Source: Acidobacteriota bacterium (GTDB lineage Bacteria > Acidobacteriota > Blastocatellia > Pyrinomonadales > Pyrinomonadaceae). From it: DNA of 64,000 nt. Position 1 is the stretch's first letter. Every line of letters starts with the position of its first letter. The stretch is from contig JBKPPU010000273.1 of NCBI GenBank assembly GCA_046733695.1, positions 2,085 through 66,084 of the forward strand. The letters run 5' to 3'. Below the pieces are notes generated by a model. It was not told where the DNA came from, searched no databases, and was given only the letters and a program-made list of their open reading frames with translations. This document shows positions 18,829 through 33,985 of this stretch, piece by piece. Position numbers and translations under genes: made by a program.

Positions 18829-18904
18829 TTTACAGTATTTCCTGAATTTACAAGATTTTCAGGATAATCGCGTCTTGTGGATCCTGCAAATCCTGTTTAT
18901 CATG
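18829..18904. repeat. Family C repeat filling the lpxA / radical SAM divergent intergenic region
   Basis: ...caagattttcaggat...ggatcctgcaaatcctgtttatca. It shares the caagattNtNagga and aatcctgt motifs with 21627-21698 and 59587-59654. Confidence 0.75.
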
Positions 18905-20916
18905 CTCGGCTGTTTGTGGGGTTTAGTATCTGGAGGGACCAAAAGCCGTTGTTTAGTGATCAGTTTCGCCGCGGGGAATCAGATAAAAGCAAGTTATCGG
19001 GAGTAAAAAGCTCCCGGCTGATCTCCGGTCTCTCGGATGTCGCGTGGCGCGCGTTTCAGTCAGTCAACCAGCGGCTGCCGGAAGGTGAAGCGATTCGGCC
19101 CAACTGGGCTCCGGGTCCGCTTCTCAAATCCTACGAACGCACTGCTCCACCACTCGGGTTCCCACGCGAAACCGACAGTCTTTGTCCAACCTGCGTAAAA
19201 GAAGTTCGCAATGCTGTGATCACCGGCGCGGTGCCGCTCGAAACGCTGATGCACGAGCACCCCGGTGAAATCAAGGCGCAGATCGTCGAAGACAACGGAC
19301 AGGTCGTGATGAAAAAGACTTGTCCGAAGCATGGAGAATTCGAAGACGTGATGTCGACCGATCCCGCTTTTCTGGAAAGGATCGAATCACTCTTCTTTGG
19401 ACGTGACTTCCGTGCCGCCGAAGACAAAGACGTCCACAAGCATGGAACGTCGAACATAAAGTTTGGACGTGGCGCTGTTTTGACTGTCGACCTGACGAAC
19501 CGCTGCAACATGATGTGCAATCCGTGCTTCATGGATGCGAATCAGGTTGGCTATGTTCACGAGCCCACGTTTGAAGACACCAAAGCGATTCTCGATCGTG
19601 CTGTCTCCTTTAAACCACGACGTCAGGTAATCATTCTCTTCTCCGGCGGCGAGCCAACACTTTCGCCTTACTACCTTGACGCAGTCGCATACGCGAAGAA
19701 GATCGGTTTCTATCGAATTCTCGCAGCGACCAACGGCATTCGTTTCGCCGAAGATCTCGAATTCTGCAAAGCGGCCAAAGCTGCTGGACAACACGGCGTC
19801 TATTTACAGTTCGACGGAGTCAGCGAAGAGAAGAACAAGCATCGTGGTGTCGGCAACTTGTTCGACGTCAAATTGCGTGCGATTGAGAATCTCGCTGAAG
19901 CTGGTATCAAAGTCACACTCGTCGTCACCATCGTCAACAATCTCAACAACGACGGCATCGGACAAATCGTTGAGTTTGCAGCGAAGAACATCGACAAGGT
20001 GCAGACGATCGCATTCCAGCCGGTTTCCTTCACCGGACGCGACGAAGACATTTCTGACGAGCTGCGCAAGAAGTGGCGCTACACGCTCGCGGGCATGACA
20101 CACGATCTGAAGAATCAGCTCGGTGGTCACATTCAACCGCTGCGCGACTGGTTCCCGCTCTCGTCCTACTCGGCTTTCACGAGCGTGATGGACATGTTGC
20201 AGGGCGCTGATGCCCCGTGGGGCTGGTCGTCGTGCAATTGTCACCCGAACTGCGGCATCTTCACGCTTCTGGTCGTAAACAAGAACACCGGTGAATTCAA
20301 ATCGTTGTTTGAATTCTTCAACTACGAACAGTTTATGAAAGACGTGGCGGTGATCACCGACACGGCACGCGGTCGCAAACTCTCTTACGCGCAACTCGGC
20401 ATGGCGATCATGCGAAACTTCAGCGCTGAGCGAGCGCCGGAGGGATTTCCGATCTCGCAGATCATCAACCTGTTCAAGCCGTCGTCAACCAATTCCAATT
20501 CCGATCGTAACGACCGCATGGCCCAGAAGACTGCTGATGCAAACGATAACTGGCGCGTGCTCTGCGTCGAGGGAATGTGGTTTCAGGATCTCTTTAATTA
20601 CGATTTTCGTCGTACTGAGATGTGCGTAATTCCCTACGGCACTCAGGAAGGCGAGATCTCCTTCTGCGCATACAACACGGGCGTTGGCTGGCGCCAGATC
20701 ATCGAGAACATGCACAAGACCGCGGGCCTGGCCGAGTGGTATGAAGAGCATGGCCGGCACAAGGTCTATGCCGCGGGCAAGCCGGTGCCGTTAACAACAA
20801 CCAAACATTCCTTGAGTCTGCCGGTTATTCAGGCTGTATTGGCGGAGGACGCCGAAGACAAGCCGGTTCATGTAAGTCCTTATCTTCTGGAAGACGAAGA
20901 GACGGTTTCTGTTTAG
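18877..20916 (+). CDS. Radical SAM protein resembling tetraether/membrane-spanning lipid synthase (Tes / GDGT-MAS family)
   Basis: N-terminal Cys pairs (SLCPTC ... KKTCPKHGEFED), radical SAM motif CNMMCNPCF, and further Cys clusters (SSCNCHPNCG; MCVIPYG...ISFCAYN). The true start is uncertain because the first codons of the ORF lie inside the family C repeat. Confidence 0.55.
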   Translation: MDPANPVYHARLFVGFSIWRDQKPLFSDQFRRGESDKSKLSGVKSSRLISGLSDVAWRAFQSVNQRLPEGEAIRPNWAPGPLLKSYERTAPPLGFPRETDSLCPTCVKEVRNAVITGAVPLETLMHEHPGEIKAQIVEDNGQVVMKKTCPKHGEFEDVMSTDPAFLERIESLFFGRDFRAAEDKDVHKHGTSNIKFGRGAVLTVDLTNRCNMMCNPCFMDANQVGYVHEPTFEDTKAILDRAVSFKPRRQVIILFSGGEPTLSPYYLDAVAYAKKIGFYRILAATNGIRFAEDLEFCKAAKAAGQHGVYLQFDGVSEEKNKHRGVGNLFDVKLRAIENLAEAGIKVTLVVTIVNNLNNDGIGQIVEFAAKNIDKVQTIAFQPVSFTGRDEDISDELRKKWRYTLAGMTHDLKNQLGGHIQPLRDWFPLSSYSAFTSVMDMLQGADAPWGWSSCNCHPNCGIFTLLVVNKNTGEFKSLFEFFNYEQFMKDVAVITDTARGRKLSYAQLGMAIMRNFSAERAPEGFPISQIINLFKPSSTNSNSDRNDRMAQKTADANDNWRVLCVEGMWFQDLFNYDFRRTEMCVIPYGTQEGEISFCAYNTGVGWRQIIENMHKTAGLAEWYEEHGRHKVYAAGKPVPLTTTKHSLSLPVIQAVLAEDAEDKPVHVSPYLLEDEETVSV

Positions 20917-24501: not shown

Positions 24502-25585
24502 GTTGCCTCAATTCAAAATCTTCTCGAAATCTGATTCGTTGCCTCAACTCGAAATCTTCTCCAAATCGCTGGGCCGGCTGACCAAAAACAAAGTTGTTAT
24601 TGGTCCAGGTACTCTCCGGTCGCCTATACAATCGCTAGCGGCTTGTTGTCAGCCGCCAACTGTAATAGTTGCTCTTGTAGTCGCTCTATTTGTCGCTTCA
24701 GTTCGGCCGGGTTCAAACCAGCGTATTCCGCCTTCAGGCGACGCTTGCTGGCGGCTGACAAATACGGTGACTGTTGTAGCCTTTGATAACGCGTTTGCGC
24801 TACCTCATACGTCGTCTTTACCTGACTGCAATGCTGTTCTTTGGACTTAAGCTTCATCAGCGGTTGAAAGTAATTCGTATAGAGACGCAGATACTCAAAT
24901 AGTTTATTGACCAAGGTCAGTTGTTCCTGGCCAGCCAGACGCTGATAGCCGACATGCCGCCGCACCATGGTGTAGTTCTTCTGCTCCACATAGCAGTTTT
25001 CTTGCGGTAGGGCCGCGACCTGGTAAAGATAAGCCGCTCCTGTTGGCAGTACTGCAACCGGTCCGCATTGATAAACTCCGAACCGTTGTCCGAGTCAATC
25101 CCGCGCAAAGGAAACGGCAAACGCGCCCGCAGCTCTTTAAGGGCCGCAAAGACCCACACCTGAGCTTTGTTCTGCACCGCTTGCACCTCGGTCCAACCAC
25201 TGTAAATATCAGTCATATCAAGCGTCTGCAGATACTCTCCTTGCACGAGACCGCCGTTATGTCCAACCAGATCGATCTCCACAAACCCCGGTCGTTGCTC
25301 ATTCCACTCCCTGAAACTGCGCAGCGGAATCTGCTTCTTCAACAGTGTTTCCGGCTTAGTTCCACCACGCCCGCGCAACTCATGCTCGCGGCGCTCGCTA
25401 CGCAACAGCCGGTCGACCGTTGATAGCGACTTCTTGTTGCGGCCGTCACCGCTTTGCGTTCCGCCATCTTTAGCCTCAACCTTTTCTCCTCCTTCGCTGC
25501 TGAAGGAGGTCATTGTGAAACTTATTTCGAGAAGATTTTTCAGTCGAGGCACCGAATGCCTTTGGAGAAGATTTTAGTGAGTCAA
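24502..25585. mobile_element. Degenerate IS-like element: frameshifted DDE transposase flanked by doubled ~30-bp inverted repeats
   Basis: The left end has two tandem copies, gttgcctcaattcaaaatcttctcgaaatc (24502-24531) and gttgcctcaactcgaaatcttctccaaatc (24538-24567). The right end has two inverted copies, atttcgagaagatttttcagtcgaggca (25524-25551) and tttggagaagattttagtgagtcaa (25561-25585). Confidence 0.65.
24624..25513 (-). pseudogene. DDE (rve/integrase-core) transposase, disrupted by a frameshift near 24990-25000
   Basis: Two overlapping ORFs (24917-25552 and 24624-24989) join as ...TRSRPYRKK / NCYVEQKNYTMVRRHVGYQRL.... The upstream part carries the rve-like core (FVEIDLVGHNGG...DMTDIYSGWTE...GIDSDNGSEFIN). 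Confidence 0.7.
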
Positions 25586-25594
25586 TTCGTTCGG

Positions 25595-25623
25595 TTGACA
25601 AGTATAACGGCGATACGTAAATT
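25595..25623 (+). promoter_or_regulatory. Sigma70-type promoter of tRNA-Gln
   Basis: TTGACA (25595-25600), 17 nt, TAAATT (25618-25623). The tRNA starts 13 nt downstream. Confidence 0.6.
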
Positions 25624-25636
25624 CAAAACCTCATGC

Positions 25637-25710
25637 TGGGAGGTCGTCCAATGGTAGGACTCCAGACTCTGGATCTGGCTATCGGGGTTCGAGTCCCTGC
25701 CTCCCAGCCA
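25637..25710 (+). tRNA. tRNA-Gln (anticodon CTG)
   Basis: Cloverleaf folded by hand. Acceptor tgggagg/cctccca; D arm gtcc-aatggta-ggac; anticodon arm ccaga-CTCTGGA-tctgg; T arm cgggg-ttcgagt-ccctg; discriminator G; encoded CCA. Confidence 0.85.
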
Positions 25711-25802
25711 AAAAGATCACGCAGGTACGCGGTTATATCACGACGCTAGCAGCACGCTTTTTCGTTGTCCGCAGTGGGTTCGGTTGTATTGTTGTCGCCA
25801 TA

Positions 25803-25831
25803 TTGATGTTGACTGCCTGGTGATTTACAAT
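25803..25831 (+). promoter_or_regulatory. Candidate sigma70-type promoter far upstream of the TIR gene
   Basis: TTGATG (25803-25808), 17 nt, TACAAT (25826-25831). It points toward the TIR gene, about 430 nt upstream of its ATG. Confidence 0.35.
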
Positions 25832-26270
25832 GCCGCGGAATTGAACTTCGCAAATAATTGAAAAGCTGATCCTCAGCAAGTCACTGAGCCCGGCAAGCCA
25901 CCAGTGACTTCGATTGCATTCTAATCATAGACACAATCGTAGGCTCTTTTTTAAGCCATCCTACATGTTGCTTTTACTTTCCGAACTTCTGCCTTTGGCG
26001 ACGGGATGAGAGTCGAAAGAATTTCAGTTCAACTAGTTTTGACGTCAAGTGCGGTTCCACCTCACCACGTCAAGATTAAGAACGAAATTTTTTCACCGAA
26101 TTGAGCATAACAAGAGGGGGCAACTGCCTTGAGGCGCGGGCGGTAAATCTCGTGACGCCACGGCGTGTTGTTAGCTCTTGGGTCGCATTCATGGGTTCGA
26201 ATGCCTTGAGAATCCCGATCTATTTCACCAGCGCAAGAAAAGATCCCCCTTGACGCAGGAGGTTGTCGTA

Positions 26271-27662
26271 ATGGCTGACAGTGTCAAACTCTTCTATTCA
26301 TACTCCCATAAGGACGTCGAGCTTCGTAATGAACTGGACAAGTACCTGATGATTCTGAAGAGAACCGGAATCATCGATTGCTGGCATGACCGGCAGATCA
26401 CGGCTGGAGCGGAATGGAAAGGCAACATCGATGCTGAGCTCAATTCCGCTGACGTCATCCTGCTTCTCATCAGCGCGGACTTTTTCTACTCCGATTACTG
26501 TTATGACGTCGAACTCTCCCGGGCCATGCAGAGACATGAACGAGGCGAAGCAGTTGTCATTCCCGTGATTCTGCGTCCCTTCCCCTGGAAAAAAGCCTCC
26601 TTCAGTAAACTGCAAGCACTACCTACGGACGGAGCACCGGTAACAACCTGGCCCCAAGGAAAGGACGCCGCTTTTACAGACATTTCAGAAGGCATAGAGA
26701 AGGTTGTGAATGAGATTCTCAGAAAGCGAAAGTCTCCATTGCGCACAACCAAGCCCGCGGTTTATCTGGCCGAGACGACTAATGAGCGTCGCATGCAAGA
26801 CTATCGGGACGGAATTGCGGCTGAACTGAAAGCATATGGTTACCCAGTTGTTCCTGTTCCAAATGTCGACCTACCTGATGAATCACCCCAGTATGAAGAA
26901 GAGATCCGGCGTTATCTAAAAGGTGTAAAAGTCTCGGTCCATCCAATTGGAAATAAGTACGGCAGAATCATTGCGGGAACAAACGACACGTCGGCTGTGA
27001 AGCTGCAAAACATGATTGCAGAGGAACTTCGCAGGCAAGGACGGCTAGAGAGTCTTATATGGATTCCGCCAGAGGTGGCAGCAGAAGGCGATCGGCAAAT
27101 TGCTTTTCAGAGATATCTCGAGACTGATCCGCAAGCACAACTGAATGCTGAGTTATCACGCAAGCCGTTTGAATCCGTCAAAGATCGCATCATTGATAAG
27201 TTGAAGAAATACGATCGGCTGCCATTCCAGCACAGCTCCGCAGCAACGAAGAGCGTCTATCTGATGTGTGAGCAAAGGGACAAGCAGTTGGTGGCCGCAG
27301 TCAAAGACATTATTTACCGTAATGGCTTTGAAGTATTTTTGCCGCCCAGCGTGACTGACCAGGGACCCGCCGCTACCTTTCATGAGCGATGCCTGACATC
27401 GTGTGACGCAACCTTGATTTATTACGGAGCGCCCAACGATGACTGGGTGAGTCTCATGATCCTGGATATACGAGATGCGCCCACCCGACGTGTGCGTGGT
27501 GACTTCGTTTGCAAAGCTCTCTTTCTTGCCGAACCCCACGTTAATTATCAAACCCACACCGCCGAAATATTGAAGTATGACGGAAAGTCTCTTGAGAACT
27601 CGTTGATGCCGTTTATTGAATGCCTTCAAGGAAAGAGCCCGAATGGAGGCGCGTTGCAATGA
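26271..27662 (+). CDS. TIR domain protein with two additional tandem alpha/beta (TIR-like/flavodoxin-like) modules
   Basis: AGGAGG-N8-ATG at 26271. The N-terminal TIR_2-type pattern is KLFYSYSHKDVELRNEL...ADVILLLISADFFYSDYCYDVEL...VVIPVILRP. The C-terminal ~300 aa has two segments, each opening with VYL (AVYLAETTNERR..., SVYLMCEQRDKQ...). Confidence 0.8.
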   Translation: MADSVKLFYSYSHKDVELRNELDKYLMILKRTGIIDCWHDRQITAGAEWKGNIDAELNSADVILLLISADFFYSDYCYDVELSRAMQRHERGEAVVIPVILRPFPWKKASFSKLQALPTDGAPVTTWPQGKDAAFTDISEGIEKVVNEILRKRKSPLRTTKPAVYLAETTNERRMQDYRDGIAAELKAYGYPVVPVPNVDLPDESPQYEEEIRRYLKGVKVSVHPIGNKYGRIIAGTNDTSAVKLQNMIAEELRRQGRLESLIWIPPEVAAEGDRQIAFQRYLETDPQAQLNAELSRKPFESVKDRIIDKLKKYDRLPFQHSSAATKSVYLMCEQRDKQLVAAVKDIIYRNGFEVFLPPSVTDQGPAATFHERCLTSCDATLIYYGAPNDDWVSLMILDIRDAPTRRVRGDFVCKALFLAEPHVNYQTHTAEILKYDGKSLENSLMPFIECLQGKSPNGGALQ

Positions 27663-30600
27663 AACAAGATCGTACCAATCCCTTTCCGGGATTACGCCCT
27701 TTTGACGTTGATGAAGATGAGCTGTTCTTCGGCCGGTCTCATCAAACTGATGAGCTTCTGTCTCGGTTAAGGCAATCGCGCTTCACAGCAGTAATTGGCA
27801 CTTCCGGCAGTGGCAAGTCGTCGTTGGTACGTGCCGGATTGCTACCGGCTTTGAAACGTGGACTGATGGCGGCAGCCGGTTCGCGTTGGCGCGTCGCACT
27901 CTTTCGACCGATCAACGATCCGATTGGAAACTTGACTCGGGCACTCAAGAGAGAAGGAGTGTTTGTCGATGCAATAGCCGACGACCAGCAGCTTTCGTTC
28001 ATTGATAGCACCCTGCGTAGCAGTTCGTTGGGATTAGTTGAACTGCTACGACAGTCACGGATGAAAGCAGACGAGAATCTGCTGATAGTGGTCGATCAGT
28101 TTGAAGAACTGTTTCGCTTTGAGGAGACCTTTACTTGCGAGAACCCGGCCGACGAAGCCCTGGCGTTCGTCAAGTTATTATTGGCAGCTACCACGCGGCA
28201 GCGTGAAGTGCCAATTTATCTTGTACTGACGATGCGTTCGGATTATCTGGGAGAAAGTGCGAGGTTTCGTGGGTTGCCGGAAGCAATCAATGAGGGGCAA
28301 TACCTGGTCCCGCGGATGAACGATGACGAACGGCGCCAGGCTATTACCGCTCCGGTTGCGGTCGCCAAAGGCCAAATTAGCGAACCGCTGGTTAACCGGC
28401 TGCTCAATGATGTAGGCGATGATCCAGGCAAGTTGCCATTACTGCAACATGCTCTGATGCGAACCTGGGAAAACTGGGAGAACGACGGGAGAGCCGGCGG
28501 TGCCCCGCTGAGTATCTCAAATTACGCGGCAATCGGTGGTCTTTCGGGCTCTCTCTCCAAACACGCCAACGATATTTATGACGAATTGTCTGAAGGACAG
28601 CAATTAGTTGCCGAAAGAGTTTTCAAAGCCTTGACCGCGAAAGGACCGGATGGACGAGGCGTTCGTACACCGCGCACCTTTGGGGAACTCTGCGCTATCG
28701 CCACCGTCGCTGGATCAAGTGCCAAAACAATCGAGCCTGACGTTCGAGCCGTTATTGATTCCTTTCGCGGCGAGGGGCGCTCGTTCCTGATGCCGCCGCC
28801 CAGGGATGTGGAAAATCCCGACCGGATAATCCCGCTGACCGCAGACACTCTGATCGACATCTCGCATGAGAGTTTGATCCTGGGTTGGGATAGGTTGCAG
28901 CAGTGGGTTGAAGATGAAGCAGACGCGGCACGCATGTATCAGCGTTTGTCAGAGCACGCCGTGCTTTTTGACAAGGGCATTGAAAAGCGTTTGAGTCCAC
29001 CGGCATTGCCTGTTTTTCTGAGATGGCGTGACGAGACTCACCCGAATACCGCTTGGGGTCGTCGTTACTTTAATCCAGCCTGGAGTTCGCTTTTCAAGGA
29101 GGGGGGATCGAAAACCAGCGAATATGATACGGAATTTGATCGTGCAGATGCTTTCCTCGATGAGAGTAACGATGCATATGAGGCTGAGTTGGCCGTAAAA
29201 GAAAAGGCCGCAAAGCAACGCGTAAGAAGACTGGTCTATATCGCAGTGTCATTCGCATTGCTTTTCCTCTTGGCTACGGTTTTTGCTGGTGTGGCCGTCG
29301 CGCAGTGGAGAAAGGCTCAATCCGCTCTGCAACGAGCTGAAGCCGCGGAAGCTGTGACGAAACAGCAGAAGGAGGAGGCTGAGAGACAAAGGGCATTGGC
29401 TGTAGAAGGAAGATTAGAGGCCGAAAAACAAAGTGCGCTGGCTGAAGCACAAGCAAACGAGGCTGTGAGACAAAAAGCAGACGCTGTGACTCAAAGAGAA
29501 CTGGCGCGGAGAGCAGAGAGTCAGGCCGTTGCAGCTAAAGCGGAAGCCGTGAAGGATCGCAACGCTGCGGAAATGTCAGCGCAGGTAGCATCGGTGGCCC
29601 AGAAGAAGGCCCAAGACGCGCTCGCGGAGGCTCAAACGAGCAAAGAGGAAGCTTTGACACAAAAAGAGGAAGCAGAAACGCTCCGGGACCTAGCTGAATC
29701 CGCTACTGCTACAGCCAACGAACAAAAGCAGCGGGCTACCGAACAGCGCATCCGTGCCAACTCGGAGTTCCAAAAAGCAGACGAAACGTTGATTACGTTG
29801 CGAAACATAGATAATCAGACTCGACACCTCAATGCTATCAATCGCAAGAACGACCCTATCAGCACAGCTGTTTTCGCGGACAGTGAACATGCATTTATCA
29901 GCAGTGGAAATGATGCAGCTCTATTTGAGCGGCGCTCGGGCTCGTGGGAATTCAAAGAGTCCGATTTTCGTGATGTTCCTCGCCTCGTCTACAAACTCCA
30001 GACTGAGTCTAATCTCGCGGCTCATATGCAAGACGTGCTTCCTTCCGAAACCGAAGACCGAATAGGAAAATTCGGAGGTGCTGAAAAACCCGATCAGTCG
30101 CTTATTACTTCACTCGTCAGCGGTTTTAATACTGCGCTGAAGAATTCGACTCTGTATAAGAAGTCCGCCTTTCGCTACGTTAAGCTACGACCAGAAACAC
30201 AAGCTCTTCTCGATAAATTCAATCAAGATCAAGGCTCGGTAAACCTGGCCCAGCTCAATCGTATGTTACTTGAGGATGCTTATCCATTAGAGATTGCGCA
30301 GGTGAACCACTTTAATGAGGCCCAGAAGTTTCCGAGTCACTATGTTTTTGCCCTCGACACTAACTTTAAGCGGGTTGCGGCGAAATCTCAGGACAGGGAG
30401 ATCGATATTTTCGATTCAGCGGGAAAACAGATCGGAACGAAGACGAATGACTATCTATTCATTGACTCTGTCGATTTTAGCCCGCAAGGCAATTACATCT
30501 GGTCGCTAGCCCGCGAAGACGTTGAGAAGCGTGAGAATTATCAAATTCTGATCTGGAAAAACGATGAAAAAGACGATGAGCCAAGACGTTTGGACTTTAC

Positions 30601-31459
30601 CAAACCGATTAACCGCGCAGTCATGAACCATAACGAAACACAGATTGCGATAAACTTTTCCTCATCCACTGAGATTCAGTTGTGGGATATCAAAAACAAA
30701 ACAAAGATTCGTTCTCTGACAGGAACAGAAAAATTATCGGCTGGCGATTTCCTACCGACTAACGATTCCGGCAACGCTGAGAAAACCGATCTGATTACGC
30801 ACATCGCTTACAGCAACGACGGAAAATATATCGTCGCAACTTTCAAAAACCACAGAAACCTGCGTCTGTGGGATGCAACGACGGGAGAACTGCTCCACGA
30901 CATGGACGGGCACCATTGTCAGGTTAACAGTGCAGAGTTCAGCAACGACGACACTCTGATTGTCAGCGCGGGCGAAGACGGCGCGGCCTTTGTTTGGGAC
31001 CGAAAAAGCGGGCGCGTTAAGCACGAATTACGTGGCCACCTAGGATTGATGATTAGGCACGTGCGAAAGGGATTCCGAGCCTGGTTCCCGCCGATACCGT
31101 TCCCGCTAGATCTCGATCTACAAAGTCGAGAGGGCGCGTTCGTGCCTCTGAATAGCGCAAAGTTTAACCACGACGGTACCAAAGTGGTAACGGCTAGCGT
31201 CGATGGTCGCATTGCGCTGTGGACATGGAAGAAGAATGACCCCTTCGCGGTGAAATCTCTTGAGCTGAAGGGTTACACGGGAAGCGTGCTCAATGCAGAG
31301 TTCAGTCCGGACGATGAATTTGTGATTGCCGGTGGTCAGGATGGAGCTGCTCGAATCTGGCGTGTCCCAAAGCCTCTTTCTGACAAGAGCCCGGCGGCTA
31401 AATCGTGCAAGGATGCGAGCGAAATCCGATCAGCTAAACACGACAGTGATATGCAATAA
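27659..31459 (+). CDS. STAND-class P-loop NTPase (nSTAND-like) + single TM helix + long coiled coil + WD40 beta-propeller
   Basis: The start overlaps the TIR gene stop in an ATGA, preceded by GGAGG. Motifs include NPFPGLRPFDVDEDELFFGR, Walker A GTSGSGKSSLVRAGLLPAL, Walker B LLIVVDQFEELF, MRSDYLG and LPLLQHAL. The TM helix is LVYIAVSFALLFLLATVFAGVAVA. An A/E/Q/K-rich coiled coil of about 160 aa follows. C-terminal WD40 signatures are LRLWDATTGELLHDMDGH, SAGEDGAAFVWD, SVDGRIALW and GGQDGAARIWRV. Confidence 0.85.
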   Translation: MKQDRTNPFPGLRPFDVDEDELFFGRSHQTDELLSRLRQSRFTAVIGTSGSGKSSLVRAGLLPALKRGLMAAAGSRWRVALFRPINDPIGNLTRALKREGVFVDAIADDQQLSFIDSTLRSSSLGLVELLRQSRMKADENLLIVVDQFEELFRFEETFTCENPADEALAFVKLLLAATTRQREVPIYLVLTMRSDYLGESARFRGLPEAINEGQYLVPRMNDDERRQAITAPVAVAKGQISEPLVNRLLNDVGDDPGKLPLLQHALMRTWENWENDGRAGGAPLSISNYAAIGGLSGSLSKHANDIYDELSEGQQLVAERVFKALTAKGPDGRGVRTPRTFGELCAIATVAGSSAKTIEPDVRAVIDSFRGEGRSFLMPPPRDVENPDRIIPLTADTLIDISHESLILGWDRLQQWVEDEADAARMYQRLSEHAVLFDKGIEKRLSPPALPVFLRWRDETHPNTAWGRRYFNPAWSSLFKEGGSKTSEYDTEFDRADAFLDESNDAYEAELAVKEKAAKQRVRRLVYIAVSFALLFLLATVFAGVAVAQWRKAQSALQRAEAAEAVTKQQKEEAERQRALAVEGRLEAEKQSALAEAQANEAVRQKADAVTQRELARRAESQAVAAKAEAVKDRNAAEMSAQVASVAQKKAQDALAEAQTSKEEALTQKEEAETLRDLAESATATANEQKQRATEQRIRANSEFQKADETLITLRNIDNQTRHLNAINRKNDPISTAVFADSEHAFISSGNDAALFERRSGSWEFKESDFRDVPRLVYKLQTESNLAAHMQDVLPSETEDRIGKFGGAEKPDQSLITSLVSGFNTALKNSTLYKKSAFRYVKLRPETQALLDKFNQDQGSVNLAQLNRMLLEDAYPLEIAQVNHFNEAQKFPSHYVFALDTNFKRVAAKSQDREIDIFDSAGKQIGTKTNDYLFIDSVDFSPQGNYIWSLAREDVEKRENYQILIWKNDEKDDEPRRLDFTKPINRAVMNHNETQIAINFSSSTEIQLWDIKNKTKIRSLTGTEKLSAGDFLPTNDSGNAEKTDLITHIAYSNDGKYIVATFKNHRNLRLWDATTGELLHDMDGHHCQVNSAEFSNDDTLIVSAGEDGAAFVWDRKSGRVKHELRGHLGLMIRHVRKGFRAWFPPIPFPLDLDLQSREGAFVPLNSAKFNHDGTKVVTASVDGRIALWTWKKNDPFAVKSLELKGYTGSVLNAEFSPDDEFVIAGGQDGAARIWRVPKPLSDKSPAAKSCKDASEIRSAKHDSDMQ

Positions 31460-31544
31460 CGTCTCGTTAATGACTGCGCACTCTGAATTACATTGGTAGT
31501 CGTGGAGGGGAGCTCAGGTCGAAGACCCTCAGGTCTTAAAAACC

Positions 31545-32309
31545 TCAAGCGCTTGCAGACTGCGCATATCGCAAGCGACGTTGTCGAAGAATTTCAACGA
31601 TCGCGAACGCGGTCTCTTCCATCCGTTCGTGGCATATTGTGTCCAACCTCTCAGCCTCATCTTCCCATGCAGGCGACACGGATCCATGACGATACAAATG
31701 ATTATTGACTCGCTCCGAGGCATGAAACGCACTCCCACAAGGTCTCCAGTCAAATAACGGTGTCGGTGGTGATCGCTGCATTTCCAGTGGAACAGTCATC
31801 TCGCCCTTCAAAACAATTGGCACAATCGCGCCACCCGGTTCCCGAGGGGGCGGGTTGGTTCTACGCCAGTGCCGCATTTGAGATTTGAAGTCAAGACACC
31901 TCCACCAACCAGGACGCTGAGGACGTTGGTCTCGGAGTTCGGGAATCGGGGCCTCGCGACATAAGTCGAACCATGGTCGAAACTCTTTGGAAAGCATCGT
32001 ACTGAACTCGAATTTGCACCAACGTGACCCAAAATATTCAGGTGATAGAAACGCCAGTAGGACTTCACTCTCTTCGATCGCGAACGTGAGGGATCTTATA
32101 AGTTCAAAATCAGAGAACCAAGGTCTACTCAAATAATGAAGCGTATACCCGTCATAGAATATCGGTGGCTCTCCGATCGTTTGTGCTATGACAGGACGAA
32201 GAACTGTTTGCAAAAAGTGGTCAACCAGCGGTTTGATTATCTGTACCTCGTTTTCGCGGGTGGTGTAGCTCACGAATACGTGGAACCGTTCAGGTGGATG
32301 AGTAGTCAT
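31545..32309 (-). CDS. TIR domain protein (second, divergent copy with inserted segments)
   Basis: FHVFVSYTTRENE..., EVLLAFLSPEYFGSRWCKFEF (TIR WCxxE-type motif) and IVPIVLKG. 254 aa, convergent with the STAND gene. Confidence 0.7.
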   Translation of the reverse strand: MTTHPPERFHVFVSYTTRENEVQIIKPLVDHFLQTVLRPVIAQTIGEPPIFYDGYTLHYLSRPWFSDFELIRSLTFAIEESEVLLAFLSPEYFGSRWCKFEFSTMLSKEFRPWFDLCREAPIPELRDQRPQRPGWWRCLDFKSQMRHWRRTNPPPREPGGAIVPIVLKGEMTVPLEMQRSPPTPLFDWRPCGSAFHASERVNNHLYRHGSVSPAWEDEAERLDTICHERMEETAFAIVEILRQRRLRYAQSASA

Positions 32310-32336
32310 TCTACGAGAGTACGCAGCATCGGGGAC

Positions 32337-32904
32337 TCAAGGTGAGACATTGAAGGAGATCGTCGCCGTAGTCTTGCCGCCGAAATAGTTGCTTGCTTGT
32401 CCTGTCAACGTCCCGCTGCCTGAAGTGAAGATCCAGCCGGCCTGACATTCCATCTTAAAATCCACATCGTAGAGCAGGAAGATGCTCGTCAATACATTTC
32501 CATTGGAATCAGGCGCGAGGTTCTGAGTCATTGGAGCAAGCGTCGCATTTTTGTTCTGTGCGATGTTCTCACCGCCCGGCGGCGCCTTGCAGGTCCAGAC
32601 CAGCTCGCCGCTGCCGGCGGATGGATTAATCTGGATTTGCTTCACACCTTCAGGATCGTTGGCTTTCAACGTAATCCGATATTTTTCACCGCGCTTGACG
32701 TTGATCGTCGGATTACCGTTATGGTCGGACTGCGCGTTGGTGGCGTAGTTAAAAACGTTCCAGATAAGTGAAGGTGGCGTGGAATCCGATTTGGGCAATC
32801 TTCACACCTTTCTGGCAGCTCGCAATGACCAGACAGATCACAACCATGAAGAAGCAACCTAATCGCCATCTCGGCGCCAGTCTCATGTAAGCCTTAGTTG
32901 ACAT
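32337..32904 (-). pseudogene. Putative lipoprotein whose signal peptide and mature part are in different frames (or a TTG-initiated 153-aa ORF)
   Basis: Frame A (from ATG 32904 or 32886) encodes M..RLAPRWRLGCFFMVVICLVIASC with lipobox IASC, and stops at 32749. Frame B (32798-32337) encodes a 153-aa beta-rich protein. Frame B is closed by TGA just upstream of 32798, so a 1-nt shift near 32791-32803 would be required. Confidence 0.4.
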
Positions 32905-32924: not shown

Positions 32925-33257
32925 TTACTTCAATTCGCCTGGCCGATAGCCACAATGAACGCACCTCATTGCGAATGCGTTCTGGTACCACCACTTCCGA
33001 TAGAAATTCTTATTGCAACGCGGGCACTTCCAATTTAGTCGCCAGATGCCTGTTGCGACGATGCCCAGGAACCAGGCTGTGCTCAAAATCTGAGCCACAC
33101 CCTCAGAATTCAACCACCGGCCGAGGGGAACAGCAACATACAAGATCGCAAAAAACCCGCTGAGGGCGAGACTCCAAAACACAAGGTTTCGCTTGCGATA
33201 TTCCCAAAGCGCCTCCTGCCTCGCAATCATTGAGTCCATATCTCCTTTAAATCTCAT
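32925..33257 (-). CDS. Small membrane protein with two TM helices and a C-terminal CxxC...CxxC zinc ribbon
   Basis: LVFWSLALSGFFAILYVAV and TAWFLGIVATGIW hydrophobic segments, then KCPRCNKNFYRKWWYQNAFAMRCVHCGY. The start is ambiguous (33257, 33239 or 33230); the ORF-track start at 33341 is unlikely. Confidence 0.55.
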   Translation of the reverse strand: MRFKGDMDSMIARQEALWEYRKRNLVFWSLALSGFFAILYVAVPLGRWLNSEGVAQILSTAWFLGIVATGIWRLNWKCPRCNKNFYRKWWYQNAFAMRCVHCGYRPGELK

Positions 33258-33404
33258 GTGCGAAAATTGAAGCACACCTGCCTTCCGTGGACCAAGCCCA
33301 TATATGCCACGAATGAACAAAGTCAGCGTGACACCACACACTACGTTCGAAATGATGTTACACTGTGCGCTAAATTGAATGCGGATTTAGCAACGGAGCA
33401 CGTT

Positions 33405-33698
33405 ATGAAACTTACGCGCGACATTCAGAGCCTTAGTACTTTCAAACGCGATACCGCGAAGATCGTTCGCCAGCTAAAGAAGACCGGGCAGCCAGTTGTT
33501 CTGACCGTTAATGGCAAAGCTGAACTTGTTGTACAGGACGCGGAAAGCTACCAAAAGCTCCTTGAAGCGCAGGATCGGATGGAAGCAATCGAGGGTATAA
33601 GGCGTGGATTGGAGAGCATGAAGCGGAATGCAGGGAAACCGGCAGAAAAATTCTTCCGGGAGTTTTTTGCTGAGAAAGGCATTTCGGAGCGGGAATGA
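33405..33698 (+). CDS. Type II antitoxin, Phd/YefM family
   Basis: GGAG-N6-ATG. The sequence MKLTRDIQSLSTFKRDTAKIVRQLKKTGQPVVLTVNGKAELVVQDAESYQKLLE is a classic Phd/YefM N-terminus. Confidence 0.8.
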   Translation: MKLTRDIQSLSTFKRDTAKIVRQLKKTGQPVVLTVNGKAELVVQDAESYQKLLEAQDRMEAIEGIRRGLESMKRNAGKPAEKFFREFFAEKGISERE

Positions 33699-33985
33699 AG
33701 CGTTACGCAGTTATCTTCGAGCTCTCTGCTCAGGCAGACGTCCGTGGATCTTATGAGTGGGGTTGCCGGGTTTGGGGAAAGAGAGAAGCGCAACGATGGG
33801 TCCGCGAATTACGGATAGCAATTTTCAGCCAGCTCAGCCTCGTGCCCAAGGGGTTTCCGATCGCGCCTGAGGACGACGAGTTCTCTGAACAGATTCGCCA
33901 GATGATTGTGGGCCGCTATCGTGTATTGTTCACAATCAGAAAGCACAAGGTTCACGTTCTTCACGTTAGAGGCGCTCACGTCTAA
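33695..33985 (+). CDS. Type II toxin, ParE/RelE superfamily
   Basis: ATGA overlap with the antitoxin. 96 aa ending ...IVGRYRVLFTIRKHKVHVLHVRGAH, typical of ParE/RelE-fold toxins. Confidence 0.75.
   Translation: MKRYAVIFELSAQADVRGSYEWGCRVWGKREAQRWVRELRIAIFSQLSLVPKGFPIAPEDDEFSEQIRQMIVGRYRVLFTIRKHKVHVLHVRGAHV

Follow-up and report, generated by a model that had tools for sequence, protein, structure and literature searches.

The gene pair

The window analyzed here is a stretch of 64,000 nt from a contig of an Acidobacteriota bacterium. It contains two adjacent genes, termed A and B, which encode a TIR-domain protein and a transmembrane (TM) nucleoside triphosphatase (NTPase) of the STAND class, and which represent one co-inherited two-gene unit. 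Gene A (26271..27662, + strand) encodes 463 aa. It begins with the ATG at 26271, ends with the TGA at 27660–27662 and is preceded by a Shine-Dalgarno-like AGGAGG at 26257..26262 (+ strand), 8 nt ahead of the ATG. Gene B (27659..31459, + strand) encodes 1266 aa, a predicted single-pass membrane protein of the nSTAND1 class. The junction (27645..27662, + strand) has a GGAGG at 27645–27649, 9 nt upstream of gene B, and an ATGA at 27659–27662 in which the start of B lies over the stop of A. The two products (463 and 1266 aa) are recorded with identical boundaries as called genes on one NCBI contig.

An earlier note on this DNA had described a 463 aa TIR protein with a putative catalytic Glu81, an overlapping gene of 1266 aa with its GGAGG, and in the latter an nSTAND NTPase followed by a TM helix, a coiled coil and a WD40 propeller. 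A direct reading of the sequence agrees with the gene limits and the junction. The domain assignments and their order are borne out by Pfam matches, sequence motifs, hydropathy and composition, as given below. The part of protein A beyond the TIR domain had been left unspecified; it makes up two thirds of the protein.

The TIR domain of protein A

The TIR domain consists of residues 5–155 (26283..26735, + strand) and is detected by Pfam, PADLOC and Foldseek. The Pfam matches are to TIR_2 at residues 8–115 (1.2e-15, 58.5 bits, cut-off 28) and to TIR (3e-07, 30.8 bits, cut-off 21.3). The PADLOC ThsB1 model PDLC00420 matches with 9.3e-56, and the match spans the TIR half alone of this 319-position model. 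An AlphaFold2 model of full-length protein A has a predicted local distance difference test (pLDDT) value of 82.7. When compared by Foldseek it resembles AbTir (7uxu, TM-score 0.78), the TIR domain of MAL (0.70) and MyD88 (0.67). The N-terminal domain is thus predicted to adopt the flavodoxin-like TIR fold, as had been proposed. The TIR of the window is ThsB1-like and is 55–65% identical to TIRs that occur in hundreds of further architectures.

Glu81 (codon GAA, 26511–26513, + strand) is at the catalytic position and is part of an SxxCxxE motif (SDYCYDVEL). The Glu81 column is invariant across 16 aligned TIRs, and the Glu is kept in 51 of the 62 partners in the family. By this alignment the TIR carries the Glu of the NADase subclass at the start of helix alpha-C, and cleavage of NAD+ is predicted. 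Protein A displays no signal peptide and no TM helix and is predicted to be cytoplasmic.

The double DUF4062/NIR-like module

The Foldseek results for full-length protein A are dominated by the TIR domain, and a separate model was therefore made for residues 159–463. This model, built from 143 homologues, has a pLDDT of 93.4 and shows two consecutive alpha/beta domains. Domain 2 (residues 160–316; 26748..27218, + strand) has a DUF4062/NIR-like TIR-type fold as judged from the model, Foldseek and the Pfam matches of relatives. Domain 3 (residues 326–455; 27246..27635, + strand) appears from hhalign and the model to repeat this fold in a more degenerate form. Foldseek matches of residues 159–463 are to the CMP hydrolase MilB (4ohb), the nucleoside deoxyribosyltransferase (NDT) 7o62, BcmB (4jen), DNPH1 and the TIR domains of SARM1 and STING. 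These are the classes published for DUF4062/NIR, which points to a TIR/NDT-like fold. According to the models, two thirds of protein A is taken up by a conserved, DUF4062/NIR-like module with two TIR/NDT-fold domains. The earlier description as a TIR protein is correct for the N-terminal third and incomplete for the rest.

Pfam DUF4062 (PF13271) matches 58 of 73 relatives, on the region homologous to window residues 164–250, i.e., on domain 2. The assignment of domain 2 as DUF4062-like rests on these relatives and on the predicted fold. When domain 3 is compared with domain 2 by hhalign, the probability is 86%. The hhalign comparison of domains 2 and 3 with the TIR profile is insignificant (probability about 1%), though in register through beta-C; because of this, the proposed relation of these domains to TIR rests on structure. 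Domain 3 has a CDATLIYYG motif and an invariant Trp392, and an acidic catalytic residue is absent.

At the position of the catalytic Glu, domain 2 has Gln246 (codon CAA, 27006–27008, + strand), as determined by alignment register. A Gln is present at this position in 139 of 143 family sequences. The register follows from Pfam, where residues 203–284 of protein P0135 align to model positions 2–82, and from the distance that separates the aromatic residue of beta-A from the catalytic position, which is 76 in both Eva01 (F11–E87) and P0135 (Y204–Q280, the latter equivalent to Q246 in the window). By alignment, the catalytic Glu of DUF4062/NIR is replaced by Gln246. Three 2026 preprints describe DUF4062, renamed NIR, as a NADase effector that resembles TIR and depends on a Glu (E108 in PsAvs2, E98 in Vulcan, E103 in VstA, E97 in KpSwz and E87 in Eva01). 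According to these preprints, E-to-Q mutants of PsAvs2, Vulcan and VstA lose both NADase activity and defense. Domain 2 has conserved pocket residues, His224, Gln246, Trp264 and Gln276. It is probably a pseudo-NADase that retains a conserved pocket, because it has Gln at the very position where the E-to-Q change inactivates NIR enzymes.

Protein B: NTPase, stalk and propeller

The nSTAND1 NTPase module of protein B comprises residues 8–439 (27680..28975, + strand). PF20703 (nSTAND1) matches with 3.2e-97 and 327 bits (cut-off 27.1) over positions 1–373 of the 379 in the model, and AAA_16 matches with 7.5e-08. Motifs that can be read in the sequence are NPFPGLRPF, Walker B DQFEE, TMRSD and LLQHAL. 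The Walker A motif GTSGSGKSS at residue 47, with Lys53 (codon at 27815–27817, + strand), and the Walker B motif LLIVVDQFEE at residue 141 are intact and are invariant in seven orthologues. Sequence searches of the PDB with protein B yielded P-loop matches to UvrA and ABC ATPases and no solved relative beyond these. By profile and motifs protein B belongs to the nSTAND1 clade of STAND NTPases, and a STAND fold is predicted.

The NTPase is followed by a TM helix at residues 525–549 (29231..29305, + strand; hydropathy score 2.57), which is preceded by the Lys/Arg-rich segment KEKAAKQRVRR. A predicted helical stalk, rich in Ala, Glu, Gln, Arg and Lys, extends over residues 551–725 (29309..29833, + strand). 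A coiled-coil character of this 175-residue stalk is suggested by its composition. The C-terminal part, residues 726–1252 (29834..31414, + strand), is a WD40 beta-propeller with an insert and is predicted to be extracytoplasmic. The Pfam WD40 match is 3.1e-22, and WD40 together with many other beta-propeller families matches at residues ~936–1252. WD40 is present after the TM helix in about 37 of 61 relatives; some others have other domains there. Conservation among orthologues is highest in the NTPase (70–79% identity) and falls to 33–46% in the stalk and 36–58% in the propeller. The propeller diverges faster than the NTPase, a pattern that would be receptor-like.

Membrane topology

All orthologues have a single strongly hydrophobic helix at residues about 480–610, as do 91 of 94 clade members of at least 620 aa. 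There is an asymmetry of charge around it. The mean number of Lys and Arg residues is 5.5 in the 15 residues ahead of the helix and 2.8 in the 15 residues behind it, and the asymmetry is seen in 60 of 63 proteins. The positive-inside rule states that the Lys/Arg-rich flank of a TM helix faces the cytoplasm. Read by this rule, the asymmetry indicates a cytoplasmic NTPase and a C-terminal part on the outer side.

Further, independent information on topology comes from sister proteins in this clade. They are 47–57% identical over residues 1–560, but after the TM helix they carry Peptidase_M74 (a MepA-type murein endopeptidase), Amidase_2, VanY/M15, GH19 or SH3 domains (proteins P0288–P0395). Peptidase_M74 is found after the TM helix in about 38 of the 120 best matches. 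Peptidoglycan is the substrate or the ligand of all of these post-TM domains. A TIR-DUF4062 gene is directly upstream of the sister genes in L171 and L172 (6001–8925; M74), L173 (1658–4276; Amidase_2) and L174. Protein P0317 (L174, 6001–8415) has an extra TIR between the NTPase and the TM helix and a short outer tail; this extra TIR is predicted to be on the cytoplasmic side, together with the NTPase.

The stalk and the WD40 propeller of the window protein are likely to be periplasmic, because of the charge asymmetry and of the peptidoglycan-related post-TM domains of the sisters. With a single TM helix and a periplasmic propeller, autoinhibition by direct contact between sensor and NOD, as in Avs and Apaf-1, would not apply. 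The earlier note had placed the sensor and the switch on one polypeptide and the TIR effector on another. This division agrees with the architecture, but the predicted location of sensor and NTPase on opposite sides of the membrane had been overlooked.

Conservation of the pair

Close homologues of protein A, with 59–76% identity, are found at loci L001, L002, L003 and L011, each with an nSTAND1 gene directly downstream. The same adjacency is present at L004, L006–L008 and L009, where the homologues are distant: the module is 26–34% identical and the TIR-like N-terminal domain is of another type. For the B side, the NTPase alignment was used to scan metagenomes, which yielded a sample of 80 loci with 36–84% identity, and the upstream A partner was detected with a hidden Markov model (HMM) of the A module. 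The module is directly upstream on the same strand in 69 of the 80 loci and 600 nt away in one more. Upstream DNA is absent in three loci and shorter than 900 nt in two, and adjacency is thus kept in 70 of about 75 loci that have enough upstream DNA. Two further loci have a TIR-like upstream open reading frame (ORF) minus a recognizable module, and four have unrelated neighbors. The proposed co-occurrence of the two genes across genomes is therefore found on both the A side (7 of 7 loci counted) and the B side.

A and B are the sole genes common to these loci, and the flanks differ at each locus. Pairwise identities of the A module and of the B NTPase are correlated (r=0.87, 49 loci), and none of 999 permutations gave a value as high. 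One metagenome contig (L103, 57–10801) has two complete A-B pairs in tandem, which indicates paralogue arrays of the system. The adjacency of A and B and the profile matches exceed chance. A scan of genomes with a narrow A alignment gave 80 loci, 79 of which match the TIR domain alone, and it offers little information on the pair beyond L011 and a likely origin in Pyrinomonadaceae, as the nearest genome match is a MAG of that family (Acidobacteriota). The family is large: at E≤1e-3 the A module alone is found in 1,447 representative clusters (50% identity), and of the candidates scored for the B-type NTPase with TM region, 6,826 clusters match at E≤1e-30; many of these come from Pyrinomonadaceae and Blastocatellia.

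Co-translation of the two genes, as proposed earlier, is consistent with the 4 nt ATGA overlap in the window, which is also present in L001, L002, L003 and L009. Such coupling is typical of the subclade of the window only; across the family, B starts anywhere between slightly within A and about 250 nt beyond it (median about 13 nt).

The N-terminal domain of protein A varies. Most A partners have a family-specific TIR-like N-terminal domain, and a protein kinase is added in 4 of 62 partners (13 of 73 in a wider sample). The window TIR belongs to a subclade with those of L091, L001–L003 and L011, and this TIR type is unlike that of most partners. A constant double module with a varying N-terminal domain is the pattern expected if the module is an adaptor or regulator and the N-terminal domain an exchangeable effector.

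Proteins P0012, P0013 and P0015 combine both TIR types in one chain: the family-type TIR-like domain comes first, the double DUF4062-like module is in the middle, and a TIR of the window type forms the C-terminus. Four loci (L122, L137, L139 and L140) have B relatives of about 1015–1035 aa without an A gene. The upstream neighbor in L122 and L137 is on the minus strand and is apparently a cyclase-type signaling protein, as seen from sequence endings only. In L139 and L140 it is on the plus strand, is about 1030–1050 aa long and has an apparent cyclic-nucleotide-binding domain. These neighbors could be alternative partners of B.

Genomic neighborhood in the window

The A-B pair is 560 nt downstream of tRNA-Gln(CTG) at 25637–25710. 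Directly upstream of this tRNA gene is an insertion sequence (IS)-like remnant of about 1 kb (24515–25539), with rve-integrase ORF fragments on the minus strand and 23 nt inverted repeats at 24515 and 25517 that are 87% complementary. In the spacer between the tRNA gene and gene A, the segment GGGTTCGAATGCC at 26180–26205 resembles a tRNA T-arm and may be a tRNA fragment left as a scar by an old integration; ARAGORN predicts no gene at this site. An origin of the pair in an integrative island was considered and found no support. No att-like direct repeats of the 3' end of tRNA-Gln were found around the pair, where IS-type inverted repeats alone are present, and no integration scars are seen around it. 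A scan for promoters and terminators over 25500–32400 gave sites no more frequent than in shuffled sequence.

Convergent with gene B is a gene for an orphan TIR-like protein of 254 aa (31545–32309, − strand; Pfam TIR_2 2.7e-6, family-type TIR HMM 1.6e-7). It keeps the Glu, in SRWCKFEF, and is not conserved beside the pair at other loci. Two unannotated ORFs lie beyond it (32337–32798 and 32925–33341, − strand). They are followed by a gene for a Phd/YefM antitoxin domain protein (1.7e-11) with an overlapping 96 aa ORF (33258–33985, + strand). The 96 aa ORF is weakly similar to the ParE-type toxin PfiT (PDB 9w3a, E=0.05), and the two probably form a type II toxin-antitoxin pair.

Farther upstream, a radical-SAM protein with an HMPTM zinc ribbon (18877–20916, + strand) has PADLOC pVip (viperin) matches of 1e-13 to 1e-14. 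These probably reflect generic radical-SAM similarity rather than a viperin. The PADLOC matches to pVip, AriA, GajA, SIR2 and pAgo in the window (1e-6 to 1e-14) were rejected as defense candidates since they fall on generic families such as radical-SAM and ABC ATPases.

Proposed mechanism and alternative explanations

The balance of the evidence leans toward an NLR-like (STAND) immune or cell-death module in which B would be a transmembrane switch and A an NAD+-targeting effector. The switch would be the cytoplasmic nSTAND1 NTPase, and the TM helix and long helical stalk would carry the WD40 propeller outside the inner membrane. Protein A would be the cytoplasmic output, its TIR domain (Glu81) cleaving NAD+ or making an NAD+-derived signal. 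The two C-terminal pseudo-NADase domains of A would be a constant adaptor or regulator, which may link A to B or restrain the TIR until activation. The trigger would be an envelope-level event, for which a phage component, wall damage and a foreign cell product are candidates, and the propeller would bind or otherwise sense it. The triggered propeller would cluster B and lead to ATP-dependent oligomerization of the NTPase. Protein A would be recruited or released, and its TIR domains would assemble into an active NADase, with growth arrest or death as the outcome. By analogy, the architecture suggests a Toll-like arrangement that senses outside and kills inside.

A more specific version of this proposal, put forward tentatively, is a receptor that is both Toll-like and NOD-like. 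Its periplasmic propeller would sense an envelope event (for instance, adsorption or injection by a phage, damage to the wall or the product of a competitor), would drive STAND oligomerization, and would activate the separate TIR NADase by way of a NIR pair made inactive by the E-to-Q change. It is possible, with no greater confidence, that the sister systems read peptidoglycan in the same manner through their MepA-, PGRP/amidase-, VanY- and lysozyme-like domains.

Several observations weigh against an outside-in immune receptor. Window protein A has no match to PF13271 even at E≤10. The surroundings of the pair are a small variable patch and not a clear defense island, and the rest of the window is housekeeping in nature, with Lpt/Lpx genes, transporters, glycosyltransferases and an outer-membrane barrel. 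Among relatives, defense-like surroundings are present in L002 (an integrase and a MmeI/Eco57I-type restriction-modification system) and L010 (SLATT) alone. A location in defense islands, which the earlier note had raised, thus has weak support in the window and a mixed record elsewhere. Finally, the peptidoglycan-hydrolase domains of the sister proteins look more effector-like than sensor-like, which favors inside-out signaling for those variants.

Inside-out signaling is the alternative that survives best, although for the window pair it is unlikely. Sensing would take place in the cytoplasm, by the pseudo-NADase domains of A or by the NTPase, and B would signal outward to a periplasmic part that executes or anchors. 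The pseudo-NADase domains would bind a nucleotide or a phage protein, and the TIR would be a second, parallel output. The WD40 propeller would be a scaffold that recruits or perturbs envelope machinery, with wall hydrolases in its place in the sisters. Murein endopeptidase, amidase, VanY and GH19 domains are typical lytic effectors, the invariant Gln246, His224, Trp264 and Gln276 suggest a retained ligand pocket, and VstA and MisA (2026 preprints) are precedents for effector-linked ligand-binding domains. However, C-terminal WD40 and TPR repeats are sensors in STAND proteins generally, a WD40 domain is without enzymatic activity, and the propeller evolves faster than the NTPase, as receptors do. 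The hydrolase domains may also be catalytically dead binding modules comparable to animal PGRPs.

A function outside immunity is improbable. It would consist of envelope surveillance, development or cell-cell recognition in soil Acidobacteria and other environmental bacteria, with the STAND switch and TIR chemistry used for dormancy or programmed death. The mostly housekeeping neighbors fit such a role, as do the abundance of the clade (6826 clusters at E≤1e-30, many from Pyrinomonadaceae) and its diverse wall-binding domains. No relatives of protein B were found on viral contigs; the lack of phage-borne copies there fits a non-immune role and is neutral for an NLR-like immune module. Opposed to this are the strong link of bacterial TIR and DUF4062/NIR domains to immunity in the literature, the movement of the pair as a unit between unrelated contexts, and the tandem paralogue arrays, domain swapping and fast-evolving sensor, which are features of conflict systems. 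The mechanism itself overlaps that of the proposed immune module.

Least probable of all is a Thoeris-type scheme in which activated B causes the TIR of A to make an NAD-derived messenger that is read by the pseudo-NIR domains or by a distant effector: the match of the TIR to the PADLOC ThsB1 model (9e-56) and the presence of NADase-fold domains with a replaced catalytic residue and an invariant pocket, which could be nucleotide readers, speak for it, but no ThsA, SLOG, SAVED, caspase-like or other reader or effector is present in the window or conserved beside the pair, most family members have a different TIR-like type, and the PADLOC match is limited to the TIR half of its model.

Comparison with known systems

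The PADLOC v2 models place the pair in no system; protein A matches ThsB1 only, and protein B has weak P-loop matches only. A literature search on nSTAND1, on STAND with TIR, TM and WD40, on DUF4062 and on TM NLR-like systems turned up no paper that describes the pair. The earlier claim that the pair is undescribed holds in that it is uncatalogued, but its components and logic had already been predicted by nSTAND1 comparative genomics (PMC8195603).

That work (Kaur, Iyer, Burroughs and Aravind 2021, PMC8195603) predicted nSTAND1-centered conflict systems. These are similar to the window pair in having the PF20703 clade and a variable effector, e.g., TIR, together with an NTPase and a C-terminal sensor. 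They differ in that their sensors are FGS/CLec domains and their effectors are fused or are coupled through EAD/Death-like adaptor pairs, whereas the window pair has no EAD, a DUF4062-like double module on the effector and a clade-wide TM helix. Dore et al. 2024 (PMC10907252) describe nSTAND1 systems as targets of diversity-generating retroelements and predict a periplasmic sensor for one TM-containing NACHT-CLec protein.

Avs and bNACHT proteins (Gao et al.; Kibby et al.; Lee et al. 2026, PMC13581612) likewise combine an effector with a STAND NTPase and a repeat-type sensor, and oligomerization activates the effector. In these proteins the effector is fused to the N-terminus of one soluble polypeptide, and the sensor is cytosolic. 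The window pair has its effector on a separate polypeptide and its sensor, by prediction, across the membrane. Membership in Avs/bNACHT was rejected since there is no NACHT Pfam match, the PADLOC mad8/mad3 matches are weak P-loop matches, the effector is encoded by a gene of its own, and protein B has a TM helix. A classification of 589 STAND clades, with nSTAND included and 198 clades given as defense-associated, was published by Lee et al. 2026 (PMC13581612), who noted WD40 sensors in some; the clade of the pair may be listed in that work without a mechanism.

The NIR/DUF4062 systems of the 2026 preprints (PsAvs2-NIR, Vulcan, Vesta, Swarozyc and Evangelion) share with domain 2 of protein A the DUF4062 family and fold. 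The window protein differs by a Gln, assigned by alignment, in place of the catalytic Glu, by the duplication of the domain and by a canonical TIR ahead of it. The order A then B, i.e., DUF4062-like, STAND NTPase, WD40, is also that of the eukaryotic DUF4062-NACHT-WD40 proteins TEP1, NWD1 and NWD2. The window pair is distinct from these in that it has nSTAND1 and not NACHT, is split over two genes, is membrane-anchored and has the Gln. If the DUF4062/NIR NADase fold has been turned into a probable pseudo-enzyme adaptor in protein A, this would be relevant to TEP1, NWD1 and NWD2 as well.

The TIR of protein A fits the ThsB1 profile of Thoeris, but ThsB proteins are without a double DUF4062-like module and without a paired STAND NTPase. 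None of 53 window ORFs matches the ThsA models (SIR2, TM or Macro with SLOG), and no ThsA is conserved beside the pair. With a ThsB-type TIR present and ThsA absent from the window and related loci, membership in Thoeris was rejected.

The similarity to Toll-like receptors is one of functional analogy. Both have an extracellular repeat sensor (predicted, for the pair), a single TM helix and a cytoplasmic TIR output. In Toll-like receptors, however, the sensor is not homologous and there is no NTPase, while the TIR of the window is on a protein of its own and probably acts as an enzyme, not as a scaffold.

The unusual features of the pair are a membrane-spanning STAND protein with a probably periplasmic sensor, a double NIR-like module with a Glu-to-Gln change, and a radiation of relatives with peptidoglycan-related outer domains. 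To our knowledge, the characterized bacterial STAND/NLR-like defenses all sense phage proteins intracellularly. If the proposed mechanism is correct, a sensor located beyond the inner membrane would allow pattern recognition to take place at the envelope as well, while the genome enters or even earlier, and the STAND switch would be driven without direct sensor-NOD autoinhibition. The pair would then represent the first NLR-like system with extracytoplasmic sensing and would add a new role for pseudo-NADase domains. Relative to the systems now catalogued, this large family, which is almost wholly from uncultured soil and water bacteria, would mark a sizeable blind spot.

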